Positions 5,831-60,558 of a DNA stretch of 64,000 bases are shown here, piece after piece. The DNA is from Flavobacteriales bacterium (GTDB lineage: Bacteria > Bacteroidota > Bacteroidia > UBA10329): assembly GCA_021739695.1 (NCBI GenBank), contig JAIPBM010000017.1:4354-68353 (forward strand), in the 5' to 3' direction. Within the stretch, counting starts at the first letter, position 1. Every line of letters starts with the position of its first letter. A program made the position numbers and the translations under genes. The notes beneath the pieces were generated by a model. That model had not been told where the DNA came from, ran no database searches, and saw only the letters and a list, made by a program, of their open reading frames with translations.

Positions 5831-5919
5831 TAGACCCACTTCAGGATTTCCTGCAATTTGGCCATGGAGGATGAATGGTCAGCAACAAGGTAGTTGCAAC
5901 TTACCCATCCTCAATACTA

Positions 5920-9377: not shown

Positions 9378-9400
9378 ATTTGCGGGCAAGGTTTTCGAAA

Positions 9401-9445
9401 TTAACCTAAGTTAATGCAGGTGCTGCGTGGTTCAGAATAGGTTTG
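9401..9445 (+). promoter_or_regulatory. Second copy of the TTAAC-N4-GTTAA box (9401-9414) followed by a -7 box TAGGTTTG (9438-9445)
   Basis: Exact repeat of the 15-mer at 5817-5831. The box centre lies about 31-38 nt upstream of a consensus TAnnTTTG -7 element, 22 nt before the start of the giant repeat-protein gene. Confidence 0.45.
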
Positions 9446-9466
9446 AAGAGATAAACTGAACCTATC

Positions 9467-12400
9467 ATGCAAACACCATCCAAGCTCCGATCTTCAGTGA
9501 TCATCCTCTTCTTTTTTACAGGCCTAAAGGCATTTTCGCAAAGTAATGGCGTAGGAATAGACATTCCCAATCCACAACAGAAACTCGATGTGGCCGGTGG
9601 AATCCGTATCGGGAACACTACCACAGGATTAGCTGGCTCCATCCGCTGGACAGGTGCCGCGTTTGAAGGTCATGATGGAACCAACTGGATTCCATTTGGA
9701 GGCTCCTTTATGGGGTATTGGTCTGCAAACGGACCCGACATATCCAACAGCAACACAGGCAATGTTGGAATTGGCAATTCCCTTCCTCAGGAAAAACTGC
9801 ACATAACGGGAAAGATCCGAGTGGTAGATGGTACGCAGGGAGCAGGAAAGGTGCTGATGAGCGATGCCAACGGTACTACATCATGGACCCATGCACCGAG
9901 CATCAATCTGCTTCGCGATGCCGACAACGACACCAAGATTCAGGTAGAGGAAAGTGCTGATGAGGACCTCATCCGATTTGACGCGGCCGGAAGTGAGATG
10001 TACACCATGCGCAAGTTGGCCGGAGGTTCACCTTGGCTGGAAGTAAACTCAACCAACACCCTTATTGGAAAAAGCATCAGCTCGGCCATCAATGGTTCAG
10101 GAAGGTGGAACACGGCCGTTGGTTTTCAATCAGCTCAAAACCTGACCACTGGGCAGAAGAACACGTATCTGGGAGACAACACAGGCGGATCCAATACAAC
10201 AGGCGATTGGAACACAATGCTCGGGACCGTGGCAGGCCAGTTCAATAACGGAGGCAGCATGAATACGATGGTGGGTGGAAATGCGGGCAGAAGCAATCTA
10301 ACAGGTTCAGGAAATGTGTTCATCGGATTCGCAGCCGGTGAGAATGAAACGGGCAGCAGCAAGCTTTACATCCACAATTCATCTACCGCAAACCCACTCA
10401 TTTATGGCGACTTCTCCAGCGGTCTGCTCCGTATCAACGGCACACTCAACGTCAATAATTCCTACAACCTGCCAACTGGAGCCGGTACCAATGGGTTTGT
10501 GCTGCAGACCAATGGATCAGGAACAGCATCGTGGGTAAATCCGAATACCTTGGCAATTACCGAGACCGACCCACAGGTAAGCGCTTCCACAACCAACGTT
10601 ATTCCGAAATGGAATGGTACTGCTTTGGTGGATGGTGTGATCAGTGATATTGGCACCACTGTCAACATTGCTTCCCGCATTGTCAACGTTGGCGATAACA
10701 CGTCCACGGCTGCCACATTCTTGAATCTGGTCAGGTCCGGATCATCAGGTCGGATATATCTGGGTAGTGGGGCCACCTCTCCCAATATGGTCATTCAGGC
10801 TCAAACCGCCAGTGGCGATATTGTGCTTGAAACGGTTTCAGGCGAATCTATGCGTGTTGCGGATGGTGGCAATGTGGGCATCGGGAATGCACTGCCGCAG
10901 GAAAAACTACATATTACCGGAAAGATCAGAATGGCAGACGGAACGCAGGGAACGGGAAAAGTGTTGGTGAGCGATGCCAATGGTTCGGCCTCGTGGACAG
11001 ATGCCGCCTCGCTTACCATTACCGAGACCGACCCACAGGTGAGTTCTTCCACAATCAACATCATTCCGAAATGGAACGGCACCACGCTGCAAGATGGCGC
11101 ACTTTATGACAACGGTAACATCGGCATCGGAAATGCGCTGCCGCAAGAAAAACTACATGTTACAGGAAAGATCAGAATGGTTGATGGAACACAAGGAACG
11201 GGAAAAGTGCTGGTGAGCGATGCCAACGGTTCGGCAGCTTGGGCCGATGCCACCACACTTACCATTGCCGAGACCGACCCACAGGTGAGTTCTTCCACAA
11301 TCAACATCATTCCGAAATGGAACGGCACTACGCTGGAAGATGGCGCACTTTACGACAATGGCAACATCGGCATCGGAAATGCGCTGCCGCAGGAAAAACT
11401 ACATGTTACCGGAAAGATCAGAATCGTTGATGGAACACAGGGAATGGGAAAAGTGCTGGTGAGCGATGCCAACGGTTCGGCAGCTTGGTCCAACGCACCA
11501 AGTGTCAATCTGATCCAAGATGCAGATGAAGACACCAAGGTTCAGCTGGAAGAAAGTGCCGATGAGGACATCATCCGTTTTGACCTTGCCGGAACAGAGT
11601 ATCTTGTGCTTGACAATGGCAGAATGAATATAAAAAACACCGGTGGTGGCACTTTTTTGGGCAATGAAGCAGGCCAAAATGATGACCTGAACGGAAGGTT
11701 CAATTCGTTTGTCGGTTATTTTTCAGGCAGAGCAACAACTTCTGGTGGTGACAATGCTGCTTTTGGGGCTGGTTCTATGGAAACAAACACAACCGGCAAC
11801 GGTAATACAGCCCTCGGTCGCTCTACCCTTTTTAGAAACGTTACAGGATCAGACAACGTGGCAATTGGTACATATGCCTTATATCAAAACCTTAATGGAT
11901 CCCGAAATGTGGCGATAGGCAGTGGAGCGGGAGCAAATGCCACAGGAATTGCCAACGTCTTCATAGGTAACGATGCGGGAGCCAACGAAACTGCCAATGA
12001 CCGTCTTTACATCGATAATTCGAATACAATGAATCCGCTTATCTACGGTAACTTCCTAAGTCGCGAAGCAGCTATCAATGGCAATCTGGGCATTGGAACA
12101 CAAAGCCCCACACAGAAACTGGATGTGTTAGGCAATGTTCATGTCAACTCAAACATCCTCATGTTCACAGATCCTCAGAATAGCAACAGCACCATTTACC
12201 TAACGGCCAACGATGCTGCTTACCCGAATGAAGGTCTCAGTGTGCGCACACTCAGCAGTCCTGCCAATGGCAAGCCGCTGTTCCGTGTGCTTTCTTCTGG
12301 TGGGGCAGAAAGATTGCGGGTGGAGCACAACGGAAGGGTTTACATGGATAACAAGCTTGATGTGGTCGGGCAACTTACTTTCCGCAATGGATCACCCGCT

Positions 12401-12853
12401 GCCGGAAAAACACTTGTTTCCACTGATGCGACCGGTAACGCCACATGGAGTCAGGGCACAGAGAATGTTGCCTACACGAAGAGCACAGGGGTTTATTCGC
12501 ACGACAATACAAACGGTTACGCTGCAATCACCGGAACGGCCTCACTCAGCGTTTTTTCGGGAGATGTCATTACCATCATGGCCAATGGTTCATTCCGTTT
12601 GGATGGTGGTTCGGGGGTAGATGACTTTTTCTTTCGCGTCAGCTATACTGGCTGCGCAACGGGCAATGCCAACGAGACGAACTATTTTCCAAGCGAAGAC
12701 GCTAATGACCACGACAATTATGTGCCGGTCTCCTATATAGACGTAATGGTGGCGCCTTGCACAGGTACGCTAGATTTCGAATTCAACGCCCGAAACGTGG
12801 GAGATGACCCTTGGACTGCGGAGGACAGGGTGCTAGTGGTGCGTAGGAATTGA
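9467..12853 (+). CDS. Large secreted repeat protein, adhesin-like or fibre-like
   Basis: 1128 aa with a signal peptide (VIILFFFTGLKAFSQ). It has 82-aa tandem repeats (GN.GIGNALPQEKLH.TGKIR..DGTQG.GKVL.SDANGSA.W...TETDPQVSS..INIIPKWNG). Two blocks of short NT/GxN repeats resemble trimeric-autotransporter head motifs. No T9SS C-terminal domain was recognised. Confidence 0.7.
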   Translation: MQTPSKLRSSVIILFFFTGLKAFSQSNGVGIDIPNPQQKLDVAGGIRIGNTTTGLAGSIRWTGAAFEGHDGTNWIPFGGSFMGYWSANGPDISNSNTGNVGIGNSLPQEKLHITGKIRVVDGTQGAGKVLMSDANGTTSWTHAPSINLLRDADNDTKIQVEESADEDLIRFDAAGSEMYTMRKLAGGSPWLEVNSTNTLIGKSISSAINGSGRWNTAVGFQSAQNLTTGQKNTYLGDNTGGSNTTGDWNTMLGTVAGQFNNGGSMNTMVGGNAGRSNLTGSGNVFIGFAAGENETGSSKLYIHNSSTANPLIYGDFSSGLLRINGTLNVNNSYNLPTGAGTNGFVLQTNGSGTASWVNPNTLAITETDPQVSASTTNVIPKWNGTALVDGVISDIGTTVNIASRIVNVGDNTSTAATFLNLVRSGSSGRIYLGSGATSPNMVIQAQTASGDIVLETVSGESMRVADGGNVGIGNALPQEKLHITGKIRMADGTQGTGKVLVSDANGSASWTDAASLTITETDPQVSSSTINIIPKWNGTTLQDGALYDNGNIGIGNALPQEKLHVTGKIRMVDGTQGTGKVLVSDANGSAAWADATTLTIAETDPQVSSSTINIIPKWNGTTLEDGALYDNGNIGIGNALPQEKLHVTGKIRIVDGTQGMGKVLVSDANGSAAWSNAPSVNLIQDADEDTKVQLEESADEDIIRFDLAGTEYLVLDNGRMNIKNTGGGTFLGNEAGQNDDLNGRFNSFVGYFSGRATTSGGDNAAFGAGSMETNTTGNGNTALGRSTLFRNVTGSDNVAIGTYALYQNLNGSRNVAIGSGAGANATGIANVFIGNDAGANETANDRLYIDNSNTMNPLIYGNFLSREAAINGNLGIGTQSPTQKLDVLGNVHVNSNILMFTDPQNSNSTIYLTANDAAYPNEGLSVRTLSSPANGKPLFRVLSSGGAERLRVEHNGRVYMDNKLDVVGQLTFRNGSPAAGKTLVSTDATGNATWSQGTENVAYTKSTGVYSHDNTNGYAAITGTASLSVFSGDVITIMANGSFRLDGGSGVDDFFFRVSYTGCATGNANETNYFPSEDANDHDNYVPVSYIDVMVAPCTGTLDFEFNARNVGDDPWTAEDRVLVVRRN
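10868..11490 (+). repeat. Tandem 246-bp intragenic repeats (2 full copies plus about half a copy)
   Basis: Repeat units start at 10868, 11114 and 11360, an exact 246-nt period. A more diverged unit starts at 9758. The copies are highly similar at the DNA level by eye. Confidence 0.85.
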
Positions 12854-19317: not shown

Positions 19318-19409
<92 letters not shown>

Positions 19410-19464
19410 CAAGTTATTGGGATGGCCTCCCAAGTACGATTGCAAGTACTGAATGCCAATTTTT

Positions 19465-19539
19465 CGGGGTGTAGCGTAGCCCGGTTATCGCGCCTGCTTT
19501 GGGAGCAGGAGGTCGCAGGTTCGAATCCTGCCACCCCGA
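19465..19539 (+). tRNA. tRNA-Pro (anticodon TGG)
   Basis: Acceptor CGGGGTG/CACCCCG, anticodon stem-loop CCTGC-TTTGGGA-GCAGG, T-loop GGTTCGAATCC. Confidence 0.9.
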
Positions 19540-19580
19540 CAAAGGCCAACTTGGTTTACCATGTTGGCCTTTGATTTTTA
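19540..19580 (+). terminator. Intrinsic-terminator-like hairpin between tRNA-Pro and tRNA-Arg
   Basis: Perfect 11-bp stem CAAAGGCCAAC (19540-19550) / GTTGGCCTTTG (19563-19573), followed by ATTTTTATTT. Confidence 0.5.
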
Positions 19581-19586
19581 TTTAAA

Positions 19587-19660
19587 GGTCTCGTAGCTCA
19601 GCTGGATAGAGCATCTGCCTTCTAAGCAGACGGTCTCAGGTTCGAATCCTGACGGGATCA
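19587..19660 (+). tRNA. tRNA-Arg (anticodon TCT)
   Basis: Acceptor GGTCTCG/CGGGATC (two G-U pairs), D-arm TAGCTCAGCTGGATAGAGCA, anticodon stem-loop TCTGC-CTTCTAA-GCAGA, T-loop GGTTCGAATCC. Confidence 0.9.
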
Positions 19661-19667
19661 CATTAAG

Positions 19668-48110: not shown

Positions 48111-49430
48111 TTGACAACAGCCATCATCATCACCCTTTGTTCGCTGCTTTTGGTGGCCTACGTTTTTGCGCTCACCTCTGCCAAGACCAAGATTCCATCG
48201 GTACTGTTGCTGCTTATTTTGGGATGGGCTGCCAAGCAAGCCACCGTGTTCCTACATATTCAATTACCTGATTTCAACCCGGCATTGCCCGTCATTGCCA
48301 CCATCGGTCTGGTTCTTATTGTGTTGGAAGGTTCTTTGGAACTGAAAGTAGACAGAACGAAGATCGGGCTCATCACCAAATCGTTTTTCGGTGCCCTCAT
48401 TCCCATCATTCTTCTTGCCGTAGTTATCGCCTACGGGTTCCATTACTTGGGTGACTATGACCTTCGTCTGTGCTTCATCAACGCCATTCCGTTTTGCATC
48501 ATTAGCAGTGCCATCGCTATTCCAAGTGCTGTGAATCTGGATGCGGAAACCAAGGAATTCGTCATTTATGAAAGCAGTCTTTCAGACATATTGGGTGTGC
48601 TCATTTTCAATTTTCTTCTCCTTAATAAGGTCTACGACCAATTCACTTTCCTCCATTTCGGACTGCAGATATTGCTCATGCTGGTCATCTCCATTGCAGC
48701 AACCCTTGCCTTATCGTTTCTGCTTGCACGCATTACCCATCATGTCAAGTTCGTTCCCATTATCCTGCTAGTGGTACTGCTTTATACAGTGCTCAAGGAA
48801 TATCATCTTCCAAGTCTGATATTCATTCTGCTGTTCGGCTTGTTCATTGGGCATTTGCATAAGTTCAAGGATCATCCCTGGGCAGCAAAGCTGATTCCTT
48901 ACGATCCAGAAAAGGATGTGGAACTGTTCACCGTACTCACAATCGAAGGCACTTTCCTTATCCGTTCCTTATTCTTCTTCGTTTTCGGATTTCTGTTGGA
49001 AACGTCCGAACTTACTGACATCGATTCAGGGCTTTTAGCGGTTACAATGGTCTGTCTTTTCATGATTGTTCGGATCATTCAACTGGCCATTTCCAGACTA
49101 CCCCTTGCTCCTCTCCTATTTGTAGCTCCTCGTGGGCTCATCACCATTCTGCTTTTCCTTTATATCACGCCTGCAGAAAGTATTGAACTGGTAAACCGCT
49201 CGCTTATCATTCAGGTAATTGTTCTCACTGTATTGGTCATGACCTTTGGTATGATGGCCAGCGGCTCCAGTAAAAAGACGGAACTAGAACCTGCGATGGC
49301 AGATGATGCTCCTTCAGAAAACCCGATCGATGAGCAGCTACCCGAAGCCATTTCGCAAGTAGCGGAAGAACCAGATGTTCAAACTACGGAGGAGATTCCA
49401 GATGCTACCGATCCAACGGAAGATAAATAG
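48111..49430 (+). CDS. Cation:proton antiporter (CPA family) with an acidic C-terminal tail
   Basis: 439 aa with about 11-12 TM helices and a TTG start. The C-terminal roughly 60 aa are rich in E/D/P. Confidence 0.7.
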   Translation: MTTAIIITLCSLLLVAYVFALTSAKTKIPSVLLLLILGWAAKQATVFLHIQLPDFNPALPVIATIGLVLIVLEGSLELKVDRTKIGLITKSFFGALIPIILLAVVIAYGFHYLGDYDLRLCFINAIPFCIISSAIAIPSAVNLDAETKEFVIYESSLSDILGVLIFNFLLLNKVYDQFTFLHFGLQILLMLVISIAATLALSFLLARITHHVKFVPIILLVVLLYTVLKEYHLPSLIFILLFGLFIGHLHKFKDHPWAAKLIPYDPEKDVELFTVLTIEGTFLIRSLFFFVFGFLLETSELTDIDSGLLAVTMVCLFMIVRIIQLAISRLPLAPLLFVAPRGLITILLFLYITPAESIELVNRSLIIQVIVLTVLVMTFGMMASGSSKKTELEPAMADDAPSENPIDEQLPEAISQVAEEPDVQTTEEIPDATDPTEDK

Positions 49431-49500: not shown

Positions 49501-50997
49501 TTGAAAAAAGCAAGGACATGTGCAGTGGTGGGTTCGGGTATTGCCGGTCTGGCCGCTGCCATCCGTTTGGCAAAGCAAGGCTTTGATGTGACCGTGTTTG
49601 AAGCCAATGCCACAGCTGGTGGCAAAATGAGTGAGTTGAAAGCCAATGGCTATCGCTTCGATAAAGGCCCAACCGTACTCACCAAACCCGAATATGTAGA
49701 GGAATTGTTTGCGCTTTGCGGCAAGTCCATCACTGGCAAATGGAGCTACACGGCTGTGGAACCCATTTTCCATTATTTCTTTGATGATGGCACCGTAATA
49801 CGTTCATCCAAAGACCAACGGAAATTTGCAGCAGAGGTTGAGGCGAAAACCAACGCATCGGCCAGTTCTGTGCTCGATTTCCTCAAGCAATCGGAGACAA
49901 AGCATGAGCTCACAGACGAGGTTTTTCTGCAACGCTCGCTTCATAAATTCAAGAATTACCTCAACTGGAGCACGCTTCGTGGTGTGCTCAACTTTGCCAA
50001 GGTGGATGTGTTCCGTTCGATGAACAAGGCCAACAGCAAGCAGTTTGCAGACCAGAAAGTGGTGGATATCTTCAATCGCTATGCGAGCTACAACGGTTCG
50101 AACCCTTACCTCGCTCCTGCTACACTGAATGTGATTGCGCATTACGAGATCACCCTCGGTACGTATTTCTCCGAAGGTGGCATTCATCGCATCATTCAGG
50201 TTTTGCAACAATTGGCCGAAGAAATGGGCGTCAAGTTCCGTTTCAACACGCCTGTTCTTGAGTTACTCACCGAAGCAAAACAGGTAACTGGCATCCGAAC
50301 CAAGGAAGGAAAAGAAGATTTTGATCTGGTGGTAAGCAATGGAGATGTGTATAACACGTACAAGCGGCTGTTGCCGAATTCAGTGGCGCCAAAGCGTTTC
50401 ATTGAACAACCACGCTCCAGTTCGGTTATTGTCTTCTATTGGGGTATGGACAGAAGCTTTTCTCAATTGGGCGTGCACAACATGTTTCTGACGAATGATT
50501 CCAAGAAGGAATACGAACATCTGTTCACACATGGAACGCTCTACAATGACCCTACGGTTCACCTCACTATCAGCAGTAAAATGAACGCGAAGGATGCGCC
50601 TGAAGGACACGAAAACTGGGCAGCGCTCATTTCTGTTCCGCACGATACAGGGCAAGATTGGGATGCGCTGGTTTCTTCTTCGCGCAAGCGCATCATCCGT
50701 AAGTTGAATGCCATTCTTAAAACAGACATCGAAGCGAATATCGTATTTGAAGATGTGCTCGATCCGCGGAAAGTGAGCTCGGAAACAGGTGCTGCCTTTG
50801 GAGCTGTTTTCGGTAATAGTTCGAACAGCATGTTCTCCGCATTTCTGCGTCATCCGAACTTCTCTTCCGATCTGGAAAACCTCTTTTTCTGCGGGGGAAC
50901 AGCTCATCCTGGTCCTGGCATTCCATTGTGTCTGCTTTCGGCCAAAATTGCCAGCGACCTGATACAGGAGAAATTCAGGCCAACGAACGAAACATGA
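49501..50997 (+). CDS. Phytoene desaturase (CrtI/CrtD) family FAD-dependent oxidoreductase
   Basis: AVVGSGIAGLAAAIRLAKQGFDVTVFEAN dinucleotide fold and the C-terminal FFCGGTAHPGPGIP motif. TTG start. Confidence 0.8.
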   Translation: MKKARTCAVVGSGIAGLAAAIRLAKQGFDVTVFEANATAGGKMSELKANGYRFDKGPTVLTKPEYVEELFALCGKSITGKWSYTAVEPIFHYFFDDGTVIRSSKDQRKFAAEVEAKTNASASSVLDFLKQSETKHELTDEVFLQRSLHKFKNYLNWSTLRGVLNFAKVDVFRSMNKANSKQFADQKVVDIFNRYASYNGSNPYLAPATLNVIAHYEITLGTYFSEGGIHRIIQVLQQLAEEMGVKFRFNTPVLELLTEAKQVTGIRTKEGKEDFDLVVSNGDVYNTYKRLLPNSVAPKRFIEQPRSSSVIVFYWGMDRSFSQLGVHNMFLTNDSKKEYEHLFTHGTLYNDPTVHLTISSKMNAKDAPEGHENWAALISVPHDTGQDWDALVSSSRKRIIRKLNAILKTDIEANIVFEDVLDPRKVSSETGAAFGAVFGNSSNSMFSAFLRHPNFSSDLENLFFCGGTAHPGPGIPLCLLSAKIASDLIQEKFRPTNET

Positions 50998-51001
50998 TTT
51001 A

Positions 51002-51084
51002 AGCCACAGATTCACTGATTATCACGGATATTACACAGATGAGAAAAAACAGTGACATCAGAGGAAATCTGTGAATCTGTGGCT
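51002..51084. other. Long hairpin: perfect 14-bp inverted repeat separated by 55 nt
   Basis: AGCCACAGATTCAC (51002-51015) and GTGAATCTGTGGCT (51071-51084). There is an inner complementary pair TCACTG/CAGTGA. It lies between the CrtI-family gene and the halogenase gene. Confidence 0.6.
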
Positions 51085-51156
51085 ATTTCATGTCAAGACA
51101 ACATCTTGAAATCATTCAATATCGACCTTCAACATCATAAGCAATACCTTTAGGCC

Positions 51157-52899
51157 ATGGCCAGAGTCAACAATCAAAACCAACCATATCATGTGGTGGT
51201 CTGCGGTGGCGGATTGGCGGGATTGACCCTTTCACTGCAACTCAAAAAACTGCGACCTGAACTTCAGGTAACCGTCATCGAGAAAACCACCCGCCCCCTG
51301 CCCGATGCTGCTCACAAGGTGGGCGAATCGACTGTGGAGATCGGGGCGCATTACTTCGGAGAAGTGCTCGGGCTGAAGTCCTATCTGCAACAGCATCAAA
51401 TGCCCAAACTGGGTCTGCGCTATTTCTACGGAGGTGGAAAGTTGCCATTGGAGCAACGTCCCGAATTGGGCACTAGCATGTATTCGCCCGTTCCTTCCTA
51501 TCAACTCGACCGCGGCACTTTTGAATCGGACCTTCGGGAGATGGCGTTAAAGGCTGGTATACAACTGCTTGAAGGCGCTTCGTTGGAGGATATTCAGTTC
51601 GCGGAGATTGGAGAAAAGCATCAGGTAAATTATTCCTTGAACGGGAAAAGCGGAAGCGTTTCGGCAAATTGGGTAGTTGATGCCATGGGGCGAAGAAGAT
51701 ACCTGCAGACCAAGTTCGGACTGAAGAAGGAAAGTCTGCACTCAGCCAGTGCTGTCTGGTTCAGGATAGAAGGACAAGTGTCGGTCAATGATCTTGTTCC
51801 TGCTTCAAACACCGACTGGCATCAGCGAAATATTGAAGATCGCTACCTCTCTACCAATCACCTCATGGGTCATGGTTATTGGGTCTGGCTCATTCCACTG
51901 GCGACTGGAAATACAAGCATCGGAATCGTAACGCAGAACGACATTCACGATTTCGCGGCCTATTCGCGTTCGTACGAAACCAGTTTTCAGTGGCTCCAAA
52001 CGCACGAACCTCAACTTGCCAAGCATCTAGAAGAACAAGGGCCCATCGACTTCCGAAAGATCAAGAACTATAGCTACGGTTCAGAACAGCTTTTCTCTGA
52101 AAACCGATGGAGTTGCGTGGGCGAAGCTGGGCTCTTCTCCGATCCGTTTTACAGTCCGGGTTCAGACACCATCGCCATTACCAATACCTACACCTGCAAT
52201 CTCATTCTTTCCGATATGAATGGAACGTTCAGCAAGGAAATGGTCGATCTGTTGAACCATGAAGTGCTTGACGTGCGTTTCCCCGATCAGTTGAGCTATT
52301 TCATTAATGGTTACCACACCTTCGGAAATACGGCTGTGGCGGCCACCAAATTCCTGTGGGACACGATCTACTACTGGCGCGTGTATTCGCATCCATTCCT
52401 CTGCGGATTTATGGGCGATACGGAGTTTATTCGGATGTATGCGGAAAAGGTGAAGCAGCTTTCTGTTGTCAATCGCGCCTTGCAGGCTGAGTTCAGAACA
52501 TGGGCTGAAGCAACGGAAGACGCGCATCATTTCGAGTTCTGCAATTTGGCCATCAAACGGCTTTTCATCGAAAGCGCCATCGGACTGATGACCCGTCCAA
52601 AGAAGGAAGACTACCATCGTTATTTGGATGAACAACTGGCATTCTTCACGCAGATAAGCGAGGCGCTTAGAGCCAACGCTGCCGGGCGTTCCGATCTGAA
52701 AGCCTTCGAACCATTCCATGCTTTTTATGGCCCGATTTCGGAAGCAGAAAAGAAGAAGAACCGCACCAATCAGCGCATTGCCAAGATTGGAAATGGCGCG
52801 CTGCTCTACTCCTTCCGCGCGTTCTACTTGCGACTTTTTGTTCAAGGAAAAAACCAAGTACATGGACGTTCTTTCCTTCGGATGCTCTATTCGGAATAA
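51157..52899 (+). CDS. Flavin-dependent halogenase
   Basis: GxGxxG (VVCGGGLAGL), the WxWxIP signature (GYWVWLIPL) and FxxPFxSxG (FSDPFYSPGSD). Confidence 0.75.
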   Translation: MARVNNQNQPYHVVVCGGGLAGLTLSLQLKKLRPELQVTVIEKTTRPLPDAAHKVGESTVEIGAHYFGEVLGLKSYLQQHQMPKLGLRYFYGGGKLPLEQRPELGTSMYSPVPSYQLDRGTFESDLREMALKAGIQLLEGASLEDIQFAEIGEKHQVNYSLNGKSGSVSANWVVDAMGRRRYLQTKFGLKKESLHSASAVWFRIEGQVSVNDLVPASNTDWHQRNIEDRYLSTNHLMGHGYWVWLIPLATGNTSIGIVTQNDIHDFAAYSRSYETSFQWLQTHEPQLAKHLEEQGPIDFRKIKNYSYGSEQLFSENRWSCVGEAGLFSDPFYSPGSDTIAITNTYTCNLILSDMNGTFSKEMVDLLNHEVLDVRFPDQLSYFINGYHTFGNTAVAATKFLWDTIYYWRVYSHPFLCGFMGDTEFIRMYAEKVKQLSVVNRALQAEFRTWAEATEDAHHFEFCNLAIKRLFIESAIGLMTRPKKEDYHRYLDEQLAFFTQISEALRANAAGRSDLKAFEPFHAFYGPISEAEKKKNRTNQRIAKIGNGALLYSFRAFYLRLFVQGKNQVHGRSFLRMLYSE

Positions 52900-52923
52900 C
52901 AACGGTTAAATTTGCCGTCAAGC

Positions 52924-53178
52924 ATGGCATATACTCAAAGTCAAATTCAAGACGAGCTCCACTCCTACCTGTCCAAACGCTTTTTGGCTAAGGGCGTGCA
53001 ATTGGATGCTGCCCTTCCCTTTGCCGACTTCGGCATCGATTCGATGACCGTGGTGGAACTTGTGATGCACATTGAAGAGAAATTCAGTATAGAGATTCCT
53101 GCCGATCAGCTGACTGGAGACAATCTCAAATCGCTGGAATCGTTGGTAAACTGCGCAATGGCTAATCAGGCCAAATGA
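52924..53178 (+). CDS. Acyl/peptidyl carrier protein
   Basis: 84 aa (88 aa from TTG at 52912) with the phosphopantetheine-attachment motif FGIDSMTVVEL. Confidence 0.8.
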   Translation: MAYTQSQIQDELHSYLSKRFLAKGVQLDAALPFADFGIDSMTVVELVMHIEEKFSIEIPADQLTGDNLKSLESLVNCAMANQAK

Positions 53179-54428
53179 ACTATCCAAGCCTTTCCGGTTC
53201 CGATTACTTCCACCTCCTTGTGGACCGAAAAATGCTGCGGAATGGTCTGGTTGGGAATATCTCGCGGATTCATTTGGAACTGGATTCGGATGCAAACCTC
53301 CTTTTAATTGCTGAACGCTTGGACCAAAATCAGGTACTCAACACGGTTGGGCAACTGAAAGTGGTTCATCGGTGGCCATTGCTGCCCAAGTGGGATGAGG
53401 AAAAAGGAAAAAGGAAAAGTGTCCTCGTTCAGTTTAACATGTCAAATTCGGAATTCAACGCTACCGTTCTCAATAGAAAAGTTGACAACGATAACGGCTT
53501 AGTGTTTATCGACCTATGTGAATTGGAAGACGGTACAAAACACATGGTCATTTCCATGCATCACGTGCTTTTCGACCATCAAGGCATGATGAATTTTCTG
53601 CATTCGCTGGCAGAGCCTCATGCTGAGTTTCCGTTGTTTCCGGCAAAAGAACCCTCCTCTTTTTGGAGAAAGTTAAGTAGTGGGCATTACATGACCGTCT
53701 ATATGCTTTGCAGAAGCAGCGGCCAACTTGGCACCTTGATCGGTAAACATGTAAAACCGAAAGAAAGACCTAAATTCAAGTTAATCCACTTCAATAAAGA
53801 AGAAACAGCAAGCATAGAAGCGAATGCTTGGAAAGCAGGTTCACGCATCGGACAGAGCGCGTTCTACTTATCGGCCACTGCGAAAGTCGTAAACGAAACC
53901 CTCTGCAAGCGAGGCGATGAACCACCGTATCTCTGGTTCTCGGTACCGCACAACAACAGACGAAAAGGAACGCTTGGACACTTGGTTTCCAATCAACTTA
54001 GCTTCCTGTTTTTCCGCCTACATAAGGAGGATCTGACTGAAATCACCAGCTCTGTTTCATCCATCAACTACCAACTGAAACAACAGCTCAAAGCACGAAT
54101 CATCGAGCGCTATTCCGAGCTTCAGGATGCCTTGCGCAGGATGCCGCTCTTCATTTACGAGGGCATGGTTGATCTTGCTTCCAAAGGTAAAATGTCCAGT
54201 TTCGGCTACTCAGATCTTGGTGAGCAGAAAACAATTGTGAAGGATTTCCTCGGAGCAAAAGTGCTGCGGATGCATCACTATCCGCCTGTTCCATCACCTC
54301 CCGGATTCAATGTGATCGCTAGTAAGAACAATGGTGAACTAGCGTTCGTATGGGCTTATTTTGATGAAGCCTTGAACCAAAAGGAGATTGAAGAAATGGA
54401 GATTTCGTTCCGAAAAACCCTTCTGTAG
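53175..54428 (+). CDS. Condensation/PapA/WS-DGAT-like acyltransferase (HHxxxD motif)
   Basis: 417 aa with ISMHHVLFDHQG near residue 130, the position and form of the catalytic HHxxxDG motif. Its start overlaps the ACP stop (ATGA). Confidence 0.5.
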   Translation: MNYPSLSGSDYFHLLVDRKMLRNGLVGNISRIHLELDSDANLLLIAERLDQNQVLNTVGQLKVVHRWPLLPKWDEEKGKRKSVLVQFNMSNSEFNATVLNRKVDNDNGLVFIDLCELEDGTKHMVISMHHVLFDHQGMMNFLHSLAEPHAEFPLFPAKEPSSFWRKLSSGHYMTVYMLCRSSGQLGTLIGKHVKPKERPKFKLIHFNKEETASIEANAWKAGSRIGQSAFYLSATAKVVNETLCKRGDEPPYLWFSVPHNNRRKGTLGHLVSNQLSFLFFRLHKEDLTEITSSVSSINYQLKQQLKARIIERYSELQDALRRMPLFIYEGMVDLASKGKMSSFGYSDLGEQKTIVKDFLGAKVLRMHHYPPVPSPPGFNVIASKNNGELAFVWAYFDEALNQKEIEEMEISFRKTLL

Positions 54429-54448
54429 CGGTTTGCCGTGACAAACCA

Positions 54449-55558
54449 TTACAAGTAACCTAACTCATTGAATACAAGACCCCAAGCGATACGCACCTCT
54501 TCCATTTGTTTGGGGTCGTAATCATACTTATTGGTCTTGTAGCCCTCATAGCTTTTCACTTCGGCTTTGATGAATGGCGCAGCTGCTTCAAAATCGAATC
54601 CGAGCGTTTGGTAAGCTCCTTTAAGCGTTTCCATTTCATTACCAATAAGCTCTTCGTATTTGATCTCTACTAGATTTCCTTCAGGAATCAACTTTCTCGT
54701 TTCAAAGTACCTTAAGAACGTTTCTCGGTATGACTTTATGATGAAATCGTTCACCACCTCTTGCGGCCAATGCTGCAAAGCCACCAAAGGGAGCGTAATC
54801 GCATAAAGCCGTTCAGTGGAGAAATAGACTCGGTACGGATCTCTGTAGATGTGAATGAACTTGGCATCGGGAAAAACCTCCAGAATGGCTTCAATTCTCG
54901 AGAGATTCTCTGGCGCCTTGATGATCAGTTGCTTGCCACCGTGTTTTAACGTCAGCTTTTGCATGAAGTACTTGAATGCTGATTGCCACTCCTTTTTCGC
55001 TTCAGCATCATCAAACATTACAAATTGTCTGAATGACCAGTACATGATCTTTGGAAACATGTAGCCTGGTAGCATGCTTGCCCAACTCATATTTCCGATG
55101 GAATACTCTGGTTCTGTGGGCATATCTACGCTTAGGCGAAGATTGTCCATTGGACGTTTTTCCGGCACGCGGTTTCCGAGCATGCGCTGCAGCATCTTCT
55201 CAAATGAGAGGTATAACCAAGGCATGAAACTTTCCTTTACGGACAGGAAGGCAAACTGCGGATCGCGGCCAAGCAGGTAGTGCAGATACGTGGTTCCGCT
55301 ACGCTGATGACCAAGTATAAACACAGGTGCTTTCACTTCCGTTTCGCGGATTTGCTTATCCCATCTCAACCGCTCCCACCAAATGAGCGGGGTAAAAAGC
55401 ACGATCAAGAGTGTGATGACGATACATTTAGGAATGAAACGCCATTCAATTTGAGCACGATAACGCCAAACCATTCCCAGCCAAGTGCTCAGGTTCGCTC
55501 CCATCACCGTAGGTGCAGAGAAATCGAAATGACTTTTAGGTCCGATGATCTTGTTCAA
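54449..55558 (-). CDS. Membrane-anchored PAPS-dependent sulfotransferase family protein
   Basis: One TM (IVITLLIVLFTPLIWW), a 5'-PSB loop (LGHQRSGTTYLH) and a 3'-PB-like IYRDPYRVYFS. Confidence 0.7.
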   Translation of the reverse strand: MNKIIGPKSHFDFSAPTVMGANLSTWLGMVWRYRAQIEWRFIPKCIVITLLIVLFTPLIWWERLRWDKQIRETEVKAPVFILGHQRSGTTYLHYLLGRDPQFAFLSVKESFMPWLYLSFEKMLQRMLGNRVPEKRPMDNLRLSVDMPTEPEYSIGNMSWASMLPGYMFPKIMYWSFRQFVMFDDAEAKKEWQSAFKYFMQKLTLKHGGKQLIIKAPENLSRIEAILEVFPDAKFIHIYRDPYRVYFSTERLYAITLPLVALQHWPQEVVNDFIIKSYRETFLRYFETRKLIPEGNLVEIKYEELIGNEMETLKGAYQTLGFDFEAAAPFIKAEVKSYEGYKTNKYDYDPKQMEEVRIAWGLVFNELGYL

Positions 55559-55608: not shown

Positions 55609-58125
55609 TTGACCTCTAAGACCTCCATAAAGACTACTCCGCATGTGCTAAGATTCGCGTTTTTCATTTTCTCATTTTTCCTTTTCTCGCTCCAAGCATC
55701 AGCTCAGCGAACCCGCATTTTCGGTTCGGTGACTGATGCCAAGACAGAACTTCCACTCCCTTTTGTGAACGTTTTCTTTCAGAAAAGTACGATTGGAACG
55801 GTCAGTGATTCGCTTGGGAATTTTGTGCTTGAAACCAATCGGAATTTCGATTCTCTGACCGTTTCATTGATCGGCTATCGAAGCCAAACCTTGGCCGTCA
55901 ATCGAGGTGTGACGGAGGAAATTGAAGTTCAACTTTCACCATCTTCCTTCGAACTCGGAATGGTTGACGTGCGACCAGGCGAAAATCCTGCATTCAAAAT
56001 CCTTCGGAAGGTGATTGCCAATAAACCGATCAACACGCCTGAACGATTGGAATCCTACGAATATGAGGTTTATCACCGTGTGCAGTTCGACTTGAACAAC
56101 TTCACAGAGAAGATCAAGAAAAACCTCTTCTTGCGTCCGTTCGATTACATGTGGGAGAACACGGATACCACCGAAGATGGTGTGAATTACCTACCGATGC
56201 TTCTTACCGAAAGCAGCGAAGAGCATTTCTATCGCAAGAAACCTTATTCCAAAAAGAAGGTCATCAATGGACAGCGCACCTTCAAATTCTTTCAGGCACC
56301 AAAGATCATGGAGTTTGTGCAGGATATGTACATCGACCCGAACATCTACGACAATTACGTGATCATCCTCGACCGTAGTTTCCCGAGTCCGATCAACGAT
56401 TTCTACAAGCGGAATTACAATTTCGTGTTGGATTCGGGCATTCACAACATCAACGGGTTTCCGAGCCACCACATCTTTTTCAAACCAAAAGGCAAAAGCG
56501 ATGTGGCCTTTACGGGCGATATGTACATCGATACTGTGAGCTATGCCGTGGTGCAGGTTGACCTGGAATTCAGTGTAGAGGCTAACATCAATTTTGTGCG
56601 GAACTATTGGATTCAGCAGAACTATTCGTTCGTAGATGACAAGCAATGGTTCCTTACCAAAAGCCGCGTGATCGGTGATTTCACGGTGATTGAGAACGAC
56701 AAGGATATGACCGGTTTTTTCGGAAAGAAGACAACCGAATTGCGCAACATCAAGATCAACGAGCCTCGAAATGCAGGCTTCTACTCTACCATCGACCCAG
56801 TAATTGTGGCCGACAGTGCCAATATCCGCGATGAAGCTTTTTGGAACGAGGTCAGACGAGACACTTTTAGCACAGAGCAGCAGAATCTGGTCTCGATGAT
56901 CGATCGTATGAACCACGACAAGAAGTGGAAATTGCTTATTGGCGGACTGAAACTCTTGGCCGAAGGTTGGATTCCGTTCAGACAGATCGATATTGGAAAC
57001 GTATTCACTTTCTACAGTTGGAATCAATACGAACAGTCGCGCGTGAAACTTGGTTTTAGAACCAACGACTTTTTCAGTGATCAGGTGAAACTGAGTGGCT
57101 ACCTCGCTTACGGCATTGGCGACCAACGTTTCAAAGGTGGTGGCGAAGCGGCTTTCATCTTTCCCGGAAAGCTAAGTAAGCGTTGGATTTTCGGTGGCAA
57201 ATACCGCAACGATCTTTTCCAGCAAGGGCGAAGTCAGAACATGCTGCCCTTGGATCAAGTGTTGACCTCTTTCGTACGCATCAGCGGATCCGAAAAACGA
57301 AGTATGCTAGAGAGTTACAGCGTCTATCTTGAACGCCAATGGTTCACTGGTCTTTCTTCACGCTTGTCAGTTTTCAGAGACAATTACAGTCCATTGGGCA
57401 ATCCATTCCGAATGAGATCTGCAGGCGACACGCTGAACTTGGAAGGATATTCAACAGCTGGATTCAAGTTCAATCTTCGCTTTGCTTGGGGCGAGGATAA
57501 GCTGCCTGCAACTTTCGATCAAGTTGATGGGCCATTCTTCTTCCGCAAGTACCCGATGGTTTCGTTGGAAGCGGCTGTTGGCATCAAGGATTTTCTCGGT
57601 TCGCAGTTCAATTATCAGCAATACAAACTAAAACTAGAATACCAACTGCGCGCCAACAAGGCCGGTTACCTCAATATTTTGGCCGAAGGTGGTCTCATCA
57701 ACGGTTATCTTCCATATCAACTCCTGCACGTTCCCGATGGCAATCCGTTGGTGTTCAACGATGATCACGGTTTTAACCTGATGAACTACATGGAATTCGT
57801 TAGCGACAAGTATGTTTCATTACAGTTGGAACATCATTTCAACGGCTTGCTGTTCAACCTTATTCCCGGTGTTCGAAAACTCAAACTGCGGTCCTTACTG
57901 ATCGGAAAACTCTACTACGGAGGACTCACAACTGACAATCTGAACGGCAAATACATTTTGGCCGATGGAATGACCAACACACGGATTCCTTATGTAGAAG
58001 TTGGTTTCGGTATTGAGAACATCCTCAAAATATCGCGTATTGATTTCACTTGGCGGGTTACGCAACTTGGCAATTCAAATACCCTGGGTTTTATCGTAAA
58101 GCCGAGTTTTTACTTTCGCTTCTGA
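55609..58125 (+). CDS. CarboxypepD_reg-like plus DUF5686 outer-membrane protein
   Basis: Signal peptide, an N-terminal carboxypeptidase-regulatory-like domain (RIFGSVTDAKTELPLPFVNVFF...SDSLGNF), a long beta-rich C-terminal region, and a terminal aromatic residue (FYFRF). The start could be TTG 55609 or GTG 55645. Confidence 0.7.
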   Translation: MTSKTSIKTTPHVLRFAFFIFSFFLFSLQASAQRTRIFGSVTDAKTELPLPFVNVFFQKSTIGTVSDSLGNFVLETNRNFDSLTVSLIGYRSQTLAVNRGVTEEIEVQLSPSSFELGMVDVRPGENPAFKILRKVIANKPINTPERLESYEYEVYHRVQFDLNNFTEKIKKNLFLRPFDYMWENTDTTEDGVNYLPMLLTESSEEHFYRKKPYSKKKVINGQRTFKFFQAPKIMEFVQDMYIDPNIYDNYVIILDRSFPSPINDFYKRNYNFVLDSGIHNINGFPSHHIFFKPKGKSDVAFTGDMYIDTVSYAVVQVDLEFSVEANINFVRNYWIQQNYSFVDDKQWFLTKSRVIGDFTVIENDKDMTGFFGKKTTELRNIKINEPRNAGFYSTIDPVIVADSANIRDEAFWNEVRRDTFSTEQQNLVSMIDRMNHDKKWKLLIGGLKLLAEGWIPFRQIDIGNVFTFYSWNQYEQSRVKLGFRTNDFFSDQVKLSGYLAYGIGDQRFKGGGEAAFIFPGKLSKRWIFGGKYRNDLFQQGRSQNMLPLDQVLTSFVRISGSEKRSMLESYSVYLERQWFTGLSSRLSVFRDNYSPLGNPFRMRSAGDTLNLEGYSTAGFKFNLRFAWGEDKLPATFDQVDGPFFFRKYPMVSLEAAVGIKDFLGSQFNYQQYKLKLEYQLRANKAGYLNILAEGGLINGYLPYQLLHVPDGNPLVFNDDHGFNLMNYMEFVSDKYVSLQLEHHFNGLLFNLIPGVRKLKLRSLLIGKLYYGGLTTDNLNGKYILADGMTNTRIPYVEVGFGIENILKISRIDFTWRVTQLGNSNTLGFIVKPSFYFRF

Positions 58126-59594: not shown

Positions 59595-59679
59595 CGCTTT
59601 TCTGGACAGTTATACATTCAACTGAGTTGAGTGTAACATTTTCCTAAGCAGATTTAATGGAGTGCTTAATTTTAATGGC

Positions 59680-60558
59680 ATGAAAAAACTCCTAATCCTT
59701 TCCGTATCTGTCTTGTTATTCGTAAGTCTTCATGCTCAGGTTCCTTTCCCAACGGATGGCGCCATTTGGGTGAACACGGAATACACTTATTCGTTCAATC
59801 CACCCAATCCTATTCCAGATTCGTACTTGAATGATGTGGACAATTACTGTGTGAACGGTCAGGACACGACCATTCAAGGTAATGATTACACACAGGTTTT
59901 CTTCTGTGATGATGCATATAAAGGCGCGCTACGCGAGGTGAACAGCGCTGTTTATTTCGTTCCTGCTGATTCAACTGATGAATACTTACTGTATGATTTT
60001 GCCGCACAAGTGTCGCAAGTGCTGGAGAACGTATACGTAGGAAACCATAATGATGAATCCTTTATGCTTCAGGATTTCACTGTGCAGCAAATAGGCACGG
60101 AAATCATTGGTGGAGTGACCAGACGCGTGGTTTGGGCCGATAACTTTCGCTGGATTGAAGGAATCGGATGCGAAACAGGTCTTTTCATGGAACCATGGAC
60201 CAACGTATCGATGTATGCAAATTTCCTTGAATGCATGAGCGTGAATGGAACAACACTGTTTCCAGTTGAAGGAAATGGAGCCTGTCCGTTGACGGTTAGC
60301 GTAAAGGAAACTGCCAACTCTGAAATCTCGCTTCGTGTTTATCCAAATCCAACTGCTCAATCGGTGATGGTGGAATTCGGAGAAGCTCAGAATGATGCTA
60401 GCATTACCGTTTACAACGTGGCAGGACAGCAATTACAGGCAATTGATGTGGAAAATGTGGATAGGGCAACTATCAATTTGAAAGATCATGGAATGTACTT
60501 CCTCACCGTAAGCACATCCAACGGGTTACGAAAAACCTATCGTGTCGTCCGGAACTAG
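59680..60558 (+). CDS. Hypothetical secreted protein with a T9SS C-terminal domain
   Basis: Signal peptide and a CTD-like tail (LRVYPNPTAQSVMVEF...GMYFLTVSTSNGLRKTYRVVRN). Confidence 0.6.
   Translation: MKKLLILSVSVLLFVSLHAQVPFPTDGAIWVNTEYTYSFNPPNPIPDSYLNDVDNYCVNGQDTTIQGNDYTQVFFCDDAYKGALREVNSAVYFVPADSTDEYLLYDFAAQVSQVLENVYVGNHNDESFMLQDFTVQQIGTEIIGGVTRRVVWADNFRWIEGIGCETGLFMEPWTNVSMYANFLECMSVNGTTLFPVEGNGACPLTVSVKETANSEISLRVYPNPTAQSVMVEFGEAQNDASITVYNVAGQQLQAIDVENVDRATINLKDHGMYFLTVSTSNGLRKTYRVVRN

Follow-up and report, generated by a model that had tools for sequence, protein, structure and literature searches.

A conserved CrtD, halogenase, carrier protein, C417 transferase, and sulfotransferase block in lake Flavobacteriales as a candidate system for decorating a pigment or lipid

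Late carotenoid tailoring in Bacteroidota and Rhodothermota involves CruF, CrtD, CruC, and CruD, and its products include saproxanthin, myxol, and salinixanthin. Attaching an acyl group to a hydroxylated end group that is 3',4'-desaturated is an established tailoring step in these lineages, and Rhodothermus and Salinibacter contain monocyclic 3',4'-didehydro carotenoids as acylated 1'-glycosides (PMC7414004). In the xanthomonadin and arcuflavin aryl-polyene pathways, a chorismatase gives 3- or 4-hydroxybenzoate, which an AMP-ligase puts on an acyl carrier protein (ACP) (PMC3949708, PMC6859482). Here we describe a six-gene block in a 64,000-nucleotide (nt) stretch of DNA from a Flavobacteriales bacterium (hereafter the window; assembly GCA_021739695.1, contig JAIPBM010000017.1, positions 4,354 to 68,353). 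The block encodes a CrtI-family oxidase, a flavin halogenase, a small carrier protein, a 417-amino-acid (aa) transferase that we call C417, a sulfotransferase, and a DUF5686 protein. It shares a Bacteroidota-type CrtD with carotenoid tailoring and, with the XanB2/XanA2/XanC starter module of xanthomonadin synthesis (chorismatase, 3-hydroxybenzoic acid:ACP ligase, ACP, and halogenase), a dedicated carrier adjoining a flavin halogenase. Each of these enzyme classes is known; their combination and the carrier-paired C417 family are new. The block falls outside nonribosomal peptide synthetase (NRPS) Condensation domains, PapA, wax ester synthase/diacylglycerol acyltransferase (WS/DGAT), the mycobacterial sulfolipid-1 (SL-1) pathway, and aryl-polyene clusters, while having mechanism-level features in common with all of them. 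Its probable role is the decoration of a pigment or lipid, in a manner so far undescribed.

At the core of the block are the carrier protein and C417. The carrier matches Pfam PP-binding (PF00550) at 42.1 bits against a cut-off of 20.8 (E = 1.1e-10) and has a GIDSM serine motif, whose D-S phosphopantetheine site is invariant in 30 of 30 aligned orthologues. Related loci (numbered with an L prefix below) were gathered by four exact look-ups of C417 homologues, a scan of Genome Taxonomy Database (GTDB) species genomes, and look-ups of sulfotransferase homologues, and were screened with the window proteins; all relatives are metagenome-assembled genomes (MAGs) or metagenome contigs, except Nitrosomonas sp. 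JL21. Among 31 non-redundant loci, the carrier gene lies immediately upstream of C417 in 30, and in the window the two open reading frames (ORFs) overlap by 4 nt (ATGA). A 542-aa metagenome protein from the Joint Genome Institute (P0360) is a natural fusion of the two, with PP-binding at residues 24-77 and a C417-family domain at residues 106-540, which provides Rosetta-stone support for the pairing. By gene order and fusion, the predicted carrier and C417 form a functional unit, the invariant core of the block. In one locus (L017, 8686-13629), which has the C417, sulfotransferase, and DUF5686 genes, the upstream place of carrier, halogenase, and CrtD is taken by two ORFs that, as read from their translations, are phosphoribosyltransferase-like and metallophosphoesterase-like.

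C417 contains the sequence HHVLFDHQG at residues 129-137. Across 41 homologues, H130, D134, and G137 of this HHxxxDxxG motif are invariant and H129 is conserved in >90%. No Pfam or NCBIfam model matches C417 above its cut-off. Pfam Condensation (PF00668) gives no match to C417 and weak matches to 14 of the 41 family members (best E 3.5e-5); the one member whose score was checked reached 16.6 bits, the cut-off being 30.6. PapA_C (PF16911) weakly matches one of the 41 and WS_DGAT_C (PF06974) two, C417 itself matching neither; of the WS/DGAT models, only the C-terminal PF06974 appeared among the matches. The AlphaFold2 (AF2) model of C417 (predicted local distance difference test score, pLDDT, 92.7; predicted template-modelling score, pTM, 0.91) has the two-lobed condensation-domain fold, and Foldseek aligns it with NRPS condensation, epimerisation, and cyclisation (C/E/Cy) domains, AzeD (template-modelling score, TM, 0.74), and the WS/DGAT structure 6chj at E-values of 1e-22 to 1e-16. 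Because no family model reaches its cut-off, yet the predicted fold is of condensation type and the HHxxxDxxG motif is invariant, C417 represents a new stand-alone family inside the condensation/chloramphenicol acetyltransferase (CAT) superfamily. An earlier note on this DNA, which had set HHVLFDHQG at the position of the condensation/PapA/WS-DGAT catalytic motif and whose reading would have failed without a CAT/condensation fold, is borne out by the AF2 model, the Foldseek alignments, and the 41 homologues.

A profile search of 1.84 billion representatives returned 982 C417-family members, 416 of them at E <= 1e-30, and nearly all of the best 150 listed are stand-alone proteins of 390-460 aa. 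With PapA5, PapA1, PapA2, WS/DGAT, free-standing NRPS C domains, and AzeD, C417 shares a CAT-like fold of ~420 aa and HHxxxDG at the lobe interface and, like PapA5, it presumably receives a carrier-bound thioester. Unlike PapA, WS/DGAT, and NRPS C domains, it lies under the Pfam cut-offs, and its partner is its own small discrete carrier rather than a megasynthase.

CrtD is the commonest extra neighbour of the pair (19 of 31 loci). The sulfotransferase and the DUF5686 gene are each found in 16 loci and the halogenase in 13, two of these being distant Nitrosomonas halogenases. The six-gene block is kept and its flanks, apart from two occasional neighbours, are not conserved across loci. Because the block recurs on many independent metagenome and MAG contigs amid otherwise unrelated flanks, the gene arrangement exceeds chance. 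The earlier note had read the neighbourhood as an operon convergent with a sulfotransferase, and its co-conservation, in 30 (carrier), 19 (CrtD), and 16 (sulfotransferase) loci, agrees with that view. Its genes, motifs, and spacings were likewise all found where it had placed them: the halogenase stop lies exactly 24 nt before the carrier ATG at 52924, the ATGA overlap follows, and the stops of C417 and the sulfotransferase converge 20 nt apart. The gap between these stops contains a short hairpin.

The oxidase upstream, which the earlier note had correctly assigned to the CrtI family, can be refined to equivalog level: it scores 559.7 bits against NCBIfam NF042421 (cut-off 500) and is, by this profile, CrtD, the 1-hydroxycarotenoid 3,4-desaturase of the Bacteroidota equivalog type. 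Orthologues adjoining the carrier/C417 pair in L001, L005, L026, and L041 score 522-561 bits, all above the cut-off. Two arrangements occur. In one, CrtD is co-directional and the halogenase lies between it and the carrier gene; in L001, the end of CrtD and the start of the halogenase gene share 4 nt, and such an overlap is seen in several loci. In the other, CrtD is divergent from the carrier gene and no halogenase is present. The position of CrtD as the commonest partner of the pair points to a carotenoid or pigment context rather than a generic lipid one. Taken as a whole, the interpretation in the earlier note is partly supported. C417 differs from CruD in belonging to another superfamily and in its predicted carrier dependence, and no CruF, CruC, or other crt gene lies near CrtD in the window. 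We know of no precedent for halogenase and sulfotransferase partners in carotenoid synthesis. No second CrtI-family gene was found within the 64-kb window, and one at L040, near a 52%-identical halogenase relative, was rejected as CrtD, scoring merely 36.7 bits. In one MAG locus (L015, 6417-9507), CrtD and halogenase are broken into several ORF fragments, as pseudogenes or through assembly errors.

The halogenase matches Pfam Trp_halogenase (1.8e-12) and contains GGGLAG (residues 17-22), WVWLIP (242-247), and FSDPFYSPG (327-335). The GxGxxG FAD-binding motif (G17-G-G19-L-A-G22) is invariant or nearly so among homologues, and K84, W242, W244, I246, and P247, together with F327, D329, P330, S333, and G335, are invariant in sets of 18 and 37 homologues, down to 21-39% identity. 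K84, the catalytic lysine after the first Rossmann unit, aligns with a lysine of 3nix ("QQKFGAKF"). The best sequence matches in the PDB are PltA, 3nix, FasV, Mpy16, Bmp2, ChlB4, CmlS, and CndH, with 17-21% identity at most to solved enzymes. In the AF2 model (pLDDT 91.3), a helical C-terminal region of about 200 aa is present, and Foldseek ranks 1-45 in the PDB are all flavin halogenases, with PltM first and PltA, CtcP, ChlB4, Mpy16, FasV, MalA', CmlS, RadH, Bmp2, and CndH among the others; monooxygenases and a geranylgeranyl reductase follow with E-values ~1000x weaker. On motif and model grounds, the protein is a phenol/pyrrole-type flavin-dependent halogenase with an apparently intact catalytic apparatus. 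A geranylgeranyl-reductase or lycopene-cyclase identity, raised by weak NCBIfam and Pfam matches, was rejected in view of the invariant halogenase lysine, both halogenase motifs, and the top structures, which are all halogenases.

The enzyme thus has the fold, catalytic lysine, WxWxIP, and FxxPxxSxG in common with PltA, Mpy16, Bmp2, and CndH and with PltM, CtcP, and RadH, and its gene is directly upstream of a carrier gene. It differs from the solved enzymes in its low identity, its C-terminal region, and its membership of a very large uncharacterised clade (at least 7959 matches, proteins mostly of 515-750 aa). PltM acts on free phenols. The top sequence match of the window halogenase is the tethered-type PltA and its top structural match the free-phenol enzyme PltM. 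Distant halogenase relatives occur in varied natural-product loci, and these contexts do not point to a substrate. In one of them (L039, 8001-14662), a 40%-identical halogenase relative stands with an AMP-ligase, a 4HBT thioesterase, a UbiA prenyltransferase, and a Pyr4-like cyclase, a meroterpenoid-like context that ties the clade to aromatic-plus-isoprenoid chemistry.

The sulfotransferase matches Pfam Sulfotransfer_3 (2.5e-31; 110.1 bits against a cut-off of 27). Inspection of its translation finds the 5'-phosphosulfate loop RSGTT, the 3'-phosphate motif RDPYRVYFS, and a single hydrophobic helix near the N-terminus (residues ~41-61), and on these features it is a membrane-anchored sulfotransferase of the 3'-phosphoadenosine 5'-phosphosulfate (PAPS) type. 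The earlier note had named the halogenase, the carrier protein, and this sulfotransferase correctly, as Pfam matches, motifs, and, for the halogenase, structures confirm. The best PDB sequence matches of the sulfotransferase are 2z6v (1.4e-11) and 2zq5 (1.3e-8), which we take to be mycobacterial Stf sulfotransferases, and one source labels two of its homologues "omega-hydroxy-beta-dihydromenaquinone-9 sulfotransferase", the Stf3 activity. The Stf3 substrate is an isoprenoid alcohol, the hydroxylated menaquinone tail. The window enzyme shares the Sulfotransfer_3 family with Stf enzymes including Stf3 but has only ~25-30% similarity to them, an N-terminal membrane helix, a Bacteroidota context with DUF5686, and no adjacent P450.

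Its gene faces the transferase operon in convergent orientation in 16 loci, and in all 16 loci with pair and sulfotransferase that reach far enough, a DUF5686 gene diverges from it. The DUF5686 protein (Pfam DUF5686, 4.7e-38) has an N-terminal CarboxypepD_reg-like domain (CarbopepD_reg_2, 1.4e-15) and, given this domain type, is presumably located in the outer membrane; a literature search found no study of DUF5686. A DUF1796-like 262-aa protein, a ~170-aa protein, and a family 1 glycosyltransferase (GT1; EryCIII/UDPGT-like) recur beside the sulfotransferase and DUF5686 genes (L007, 15140-17692; L024; L025) and, in L043 (5674-7751), beside the sulfotransferase alone; none of the three is in the window. 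One subclade has an insertion between the C417 and sulfotransferase genes, a gene for a 247-aa protein of the FA_hydroxylase family (L003, 11298-12041; likewise L013-L016 and L031).

Loader-less loci form the majority (groups A, B, and C). In a neighbour-joining tree of C417, the basal loci are L026, with a divergent CrtD, L041, the Saprospiraceae/Lewinellaceae loci L033-L035, and two from Nitrosomonas (L030 and L032). With the exception of L035, which is truncated, each of these has genes for a PF12831 flavoprotein and an AMP-ligase, in this order, after C417. Since basal relatives keep both genes right after C417, the loader-less state looks like a derived, lineage-specific loss of flavoprotein and ligase in crown Flavobacteriales. 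The description of the locus as loader-less in the earlier note therefore holds for the 64-kb window but not as an ancestral condition. The crown lineage either encodes its loader at another genomic site or relies on general enzymes in its place. The halogenase, judged from its distribution on the tree, is a late gain confined to one crown clade that includes the window. At L041 (4391-15105; GCA_016704195.1), where C417 is 35% identical to that of the window, CrtD, carrier, C417, PF12831 flavoprotein, AMP-ligase, sulfotransferase, and DUF5686 genes stand together. This most complete version of the locus also contains genes for a 168-aa protein and for a 152-aa FA_hydroxylase-family protein of CrtZ-like size.

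A clue to the cargo comes from Nitrosomonas, where distant carrier and C417 orthologues with an AMP-ligase sit inside xanthomonadin-like clusters with two halogenases each (L030, 7004-20632; L032, 7322-19140). The gene order is halogenase, 203-aa protein, carrier, C417, PF12831 flavoprotein, AMP-ligase, halogenase, and a chorismatase of the FkbO/Hyg5/XanB2 type, followed by a PlsC-type acyltransferase, a family 2 glycosyltransferase (GT2), a methyltransferase, a ketoreductase (KR), and Ketoacyl-synt_2. By their predicted products, the genes around the cassette are the gene set of xanthomonadin/arcuflavin aryl-polyene clusters. Flavin halogenases work only on substrates that are electron-rich aromatics or can enolise, and this speaks against a cargo that is simply a saturated acyl chain. 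From this substrate requirement and, by analogy, the aryl-polyene setting in Nitrosomonas, we favour a hydroxy-aryl cargo on carriers of this family. The window itself is unlike a xanthomonadin cluster: it lacks chorismatase, aryl:ACP ligase, ketosynthase/chain-length factor (KS/CLF), KR, and lipid acyltransferase homologues (E <= 0.01), all of which surround the distant orthologues in Nitrosomonas, it has CrtD, sulfotransferase, and DUF5686 genes instead, and a condensation-type transferase is not described in the xanthomonadin pathway.

Our preferred reading, which is tentative and to which we give a probability of about 0.42, is halogenation of a carrier-bound group, probably a hydroxyaryl one, followed by its esterification to an isoprenoid or pigment acceptor that bears a hydroxyl, with sulfation as a possible later step. 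The holo-carrier would be loaded in trans; the carboxylic acid that it receives would most probably be hydroxy-aromatic, and the halogenase would chlorinate or brominate the electron-rich group, probably while it is carrier-bound. The HHxxxD histidine of C417 (H130) would then serve as general base in transferring the acyl or aroyl thioester to an acceptor hydroxyl (or amine), with release of the ester. As CrtD is the most persistent extra neighbour, the acceptor would most plausibly be a hydroxylated monocyclic carotenoid or a related membrane isoprenoid. The Stf-like sulfotransferase may add a sulfate, and the DUF5686 protein may handle the product at the outer membrane. The most specific form of this proposal, a halogenated hydroxy-aroyl ester on the CrtD-desaturated end of a monocyclic carotenoid, subsequently sulfated and placed in the outer membrane, is quite unlikely to be right in every part.

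Several observations weigh against the preferred reading. The 64-kb window contains no loader, chorismatase, or other aromatic-acid source. The best matches of the AMP-ligase of the relatives, which are to oxalate/malonate, fatty-acid, feruloyl, and o-succinylbenzoate ligases, all fall short of the family cut-offs, and its typing by NCBIfam and PDB sequence searches was ambiguous among small-dicarboxylate, fatty-acid, cinnamate, and aryl-acid ligases. Because the halogenase is structurally like both free-phenol enzymes (PltM, CtcP, and RadH) and carrier-dependent ones (PltA, Mpy16, and Bmp2), the argument for tethered halogenation comes down to the adjacency of the halogenase and carrier genes (24 nt). 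Gene-content patterns track the C417 tree, hence the co-occurrence counts are not independent events; group-C loci have the sulfotransferase without CrtD, group-B loci have CrtD without the sulfotransferase, and sulfotransferase homologues also occur elsewhere without the pair. The source population is from lake water, and sequence matches are confined to lake, soil, and aquatic DNA metagenomes, with no RNA run among them. To our knowledge, no halogenated or aroylated carotenoid has been described. Literature searches on carotenoid sulfates and sulfotransferases, and on CrtD together with halogenase and ACP, returned nothing relevant, and no halogenated, aroylated, or sulfated carotenoid from Bacteroidota was found.

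Two alternatives retain a pigment and differ in what the carrier holds. In the one, which we consider unlikely, housekeeping fatty-acid machinery charges the carrier with a fatty or beta-ketoacyl chain and C417 esterifies a hydroxy-carotenoid or its glycoside, comparable to CruD for salinixanthin-type pigments, giving an acyl-carotenoid or acyl-glycosyl-carotenoid ester for which no dedicated loader is required; the halogenase would act on an enolisable beta-ketoacyl group, a free phenol, or the pigment itself. Acylated carotenoid 1'-glycosides of Rhodothermus and Salinibacter offer a parallel (PMC7414004). CrtD adjoins the pair; most loci (groups A, B, and C) are loader-less, as would be expected if general enzymes did the loading; group-C loci have GT1 genes a short way (a few genes) downstream; the AMP-ligase of the relatives is similar to ligases of malonate, oxalate, and fatty acids; and the top NCBIfam match of the halogenase is CmlS, which is thought to act on an enolisable acyl group. 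However, saturated chains are beyond flavin-halogenase chemistry, the Nitrosomonas cassette adjoins a chorismatase, the window has no glycosyltransferase, and the GT1-bearing group-C loci have no CrtD. The other alternative, in our view slightly less likely still, takes the block as a module split off from a flexirubin- or xanthomonadin-type aryl-polyene pathway, the ketosynthases and the loader of which are encoded elsewhere in the genome: the carrier would hold an aryl starter or the finished aryl-polyene, the halogenase would act on the ring, C417 would form the final ester to a resorcinol or lipid anchor, and CrtD would be a neighbour through shared pigment regulation only. Chlorinated flexirubins and brominated xanthomonadins exist. 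The embedding of the Nitrosomonas cassette in an aryl-polyene cluster speaks for such a module, as do the serial arrangement of AMP-ligase, hypothetical protein, and ACP in arcuflavin arcT-arcU-arcV and the origin of 3nix, a structural relative of the halogenase, in Cytophaga hutchinsonii. Yet no KS, KR, or dehydratase gene was found within 64 kb here in the screen with Nitrosomonas proteins, or within +/-10 kb of any Flavobacteriales locus screened; no cultured flexirubin producer is the source of any named record among the relatives, which with one exception are MAG or metagenome contigs; and co-regulation alone explains poorly a CrtD adjacency that persists across two orientations and down to 35% C417 identity.

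A sulfolipid model, in which a PapA-like acyltransferase and the sulfotransferase build a sulfated, possibly halogenated, outer-membrane acyl lipid or glycolipid by analogy with mycobacterial SL-1 and CrtD is unrelated, can draw on the convergent sulfotransferase in 16 loci, on its best solved relatives, presumably mycobacterial Stf enzymes, on the weak PapA_C match of one C417-family member, and on the GT1 and DUF1796-like genes that accompany the sulfotransferase in several loci. The mycobacterial parallel drawn in the earlier note holds as an analogy of enzyme classes but not as membership, since C417 fails the PapA and WS/DGAT models. The block does not amount to an SL-1-type pathway (Stf0-type sugar sulfotransferase, Pks2 with FadD, PapA1/PapA2, and MmpL): AMP-binding or FadD-type enzymes are absent from the window, and the called genes at the examined loci include no polyketide synthase, FadD-type loader, or transporter such as MmpL. 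With sulfotransferase homologues standing alone elsewhere, and with group-B loci combining the pair and CrtD without a sulfotransferase, we regard this model as decidedly improbable. That the genes share no pathway at all, with CrtD, the halogenase-carrier-C417 unit, and the sulfotransferase-DUF5686 unit neighbours merely by inherited Flavobacteriales gene order, seems to us very improbable. Gene content does track the C417 phylogeny, every satellite gene is absent from some clade, matches come from DNA metagenomes without any RNA run, and promoter and terminator scans are uninformative; against this, the block persists while its flanks are wholly reshuffled, the CrtD adjacency survives inversion and extends to overlap of the halogenase start in several loci, and L041 unites all units except the halogenase (CrtD, pair, sulfotransferase, and DUF5686) at 35% C417 identity.

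Table 1. Features of the block, in window coordinates
Feature	Position	Strand	Remarks
CrtD (CrtI-family gene)	49501-50997	+	498 aa
Flavin halogenase	51157-52899	+	580 aa
Carrier protein	52924-53178	+	84 aa from ATG; alternative TTG start at 52912
C417 (417-aa condensation-superfamily transferase)	53175-54428	+	overlaps carrier gene
Hairpin GGTTTG-ccgtga-CAAACC	54430-54447	no strand	between convergent stops; read from sequence
Sulfotransferase	54449-55558	-	369 aa from TTG; 351 aa from ATG at 55504
DUF5686 protein	55609-58125	+	838 aa

The hairpin between the convergent stops (Table 1) is a possible bidirectional terminator; it escaped a simple terminator scan, in which no signal exceeded chance. 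Promoter and terminator counts across 49.0-58.6 kb were at or below shuffled expectation, the sigma-70 consensus used being ill-suited to Bacteroidota. A phmmer search of the 635 window ORFs with the proteins of the relatives' loci (E <= 0.01) found no homologue of their adenylating enzyme, ketosynthase-like protein, ketoreductase, chorismatase, or glycosyltransferase in the 64-kb window. The other genes of the window encode housekeeping or surface proteins unrelated to the block, and TerC, a pyrophosphatase, GldM-like and MORN proteins, DoxX, and PurC were rejected as block members, none being syntenic among the relatives. The two exceptions to the turnover of the flanks are a 439-aa polytopic membrane protein without a Pfam match upstream of CrtD (48111-49430), syntenic in 3-4 loci (L003, L014, and L015), and, downstream, a 298-aa protein sorted by the type IX secretion system (T9SS; 59662-60558), syntenic in 5-6 loci. 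Rfam and tRNA scans of the window found three tRNAs only, distant from the block: tRNA-Ser(GCU), tRNA-Pro(UGG), and tRNA-Arg(UCU), clustered at 19318-19661 between two divergent genes for SBP_bac_5 solute-binding proteins. A GC-richer stretch (5875-12853; 0.48-0.50 against about 0.43-0.46 elsewhere) encodes a tetratricopeptide repeat (TPR) and adenylate/guanylate cyclase protein, an overlapping FAD_binding_3 monooxygenase, and a 1128-aa ORF without a Pfam match.

The C417 family comprises about 1000 representative clusters and is covered by no Pfam or NCBIfam model. In freshwater Flavobacteriales, its pairing with a carrier is tied to CrtD, a flavin halogenase, and a sulfotransferase, an association with no characterised precedent. 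Nitrosomonas sp. JL21, whose record is not labelled as a MAG, has a distant C417 orthologue in an aryl-polyene cluster and offers an experimental handle on the family. If the most specific form of the preferred reading were true, the product would be a hybrid pigment, the isoprenoid counterpart of the xanthomonadin and flexirubin aryl-polyenes, and the first halogen- or sulfate-bearing carotenoid derivative from Bacteroidota. If the genes cooperate, they would provide a compact four-gene system in which to study carrier-dependent halogenation and ester formation and would constitute a new route for decorating carotenoids or membrane isoprenoids in abundant lake bacteria.

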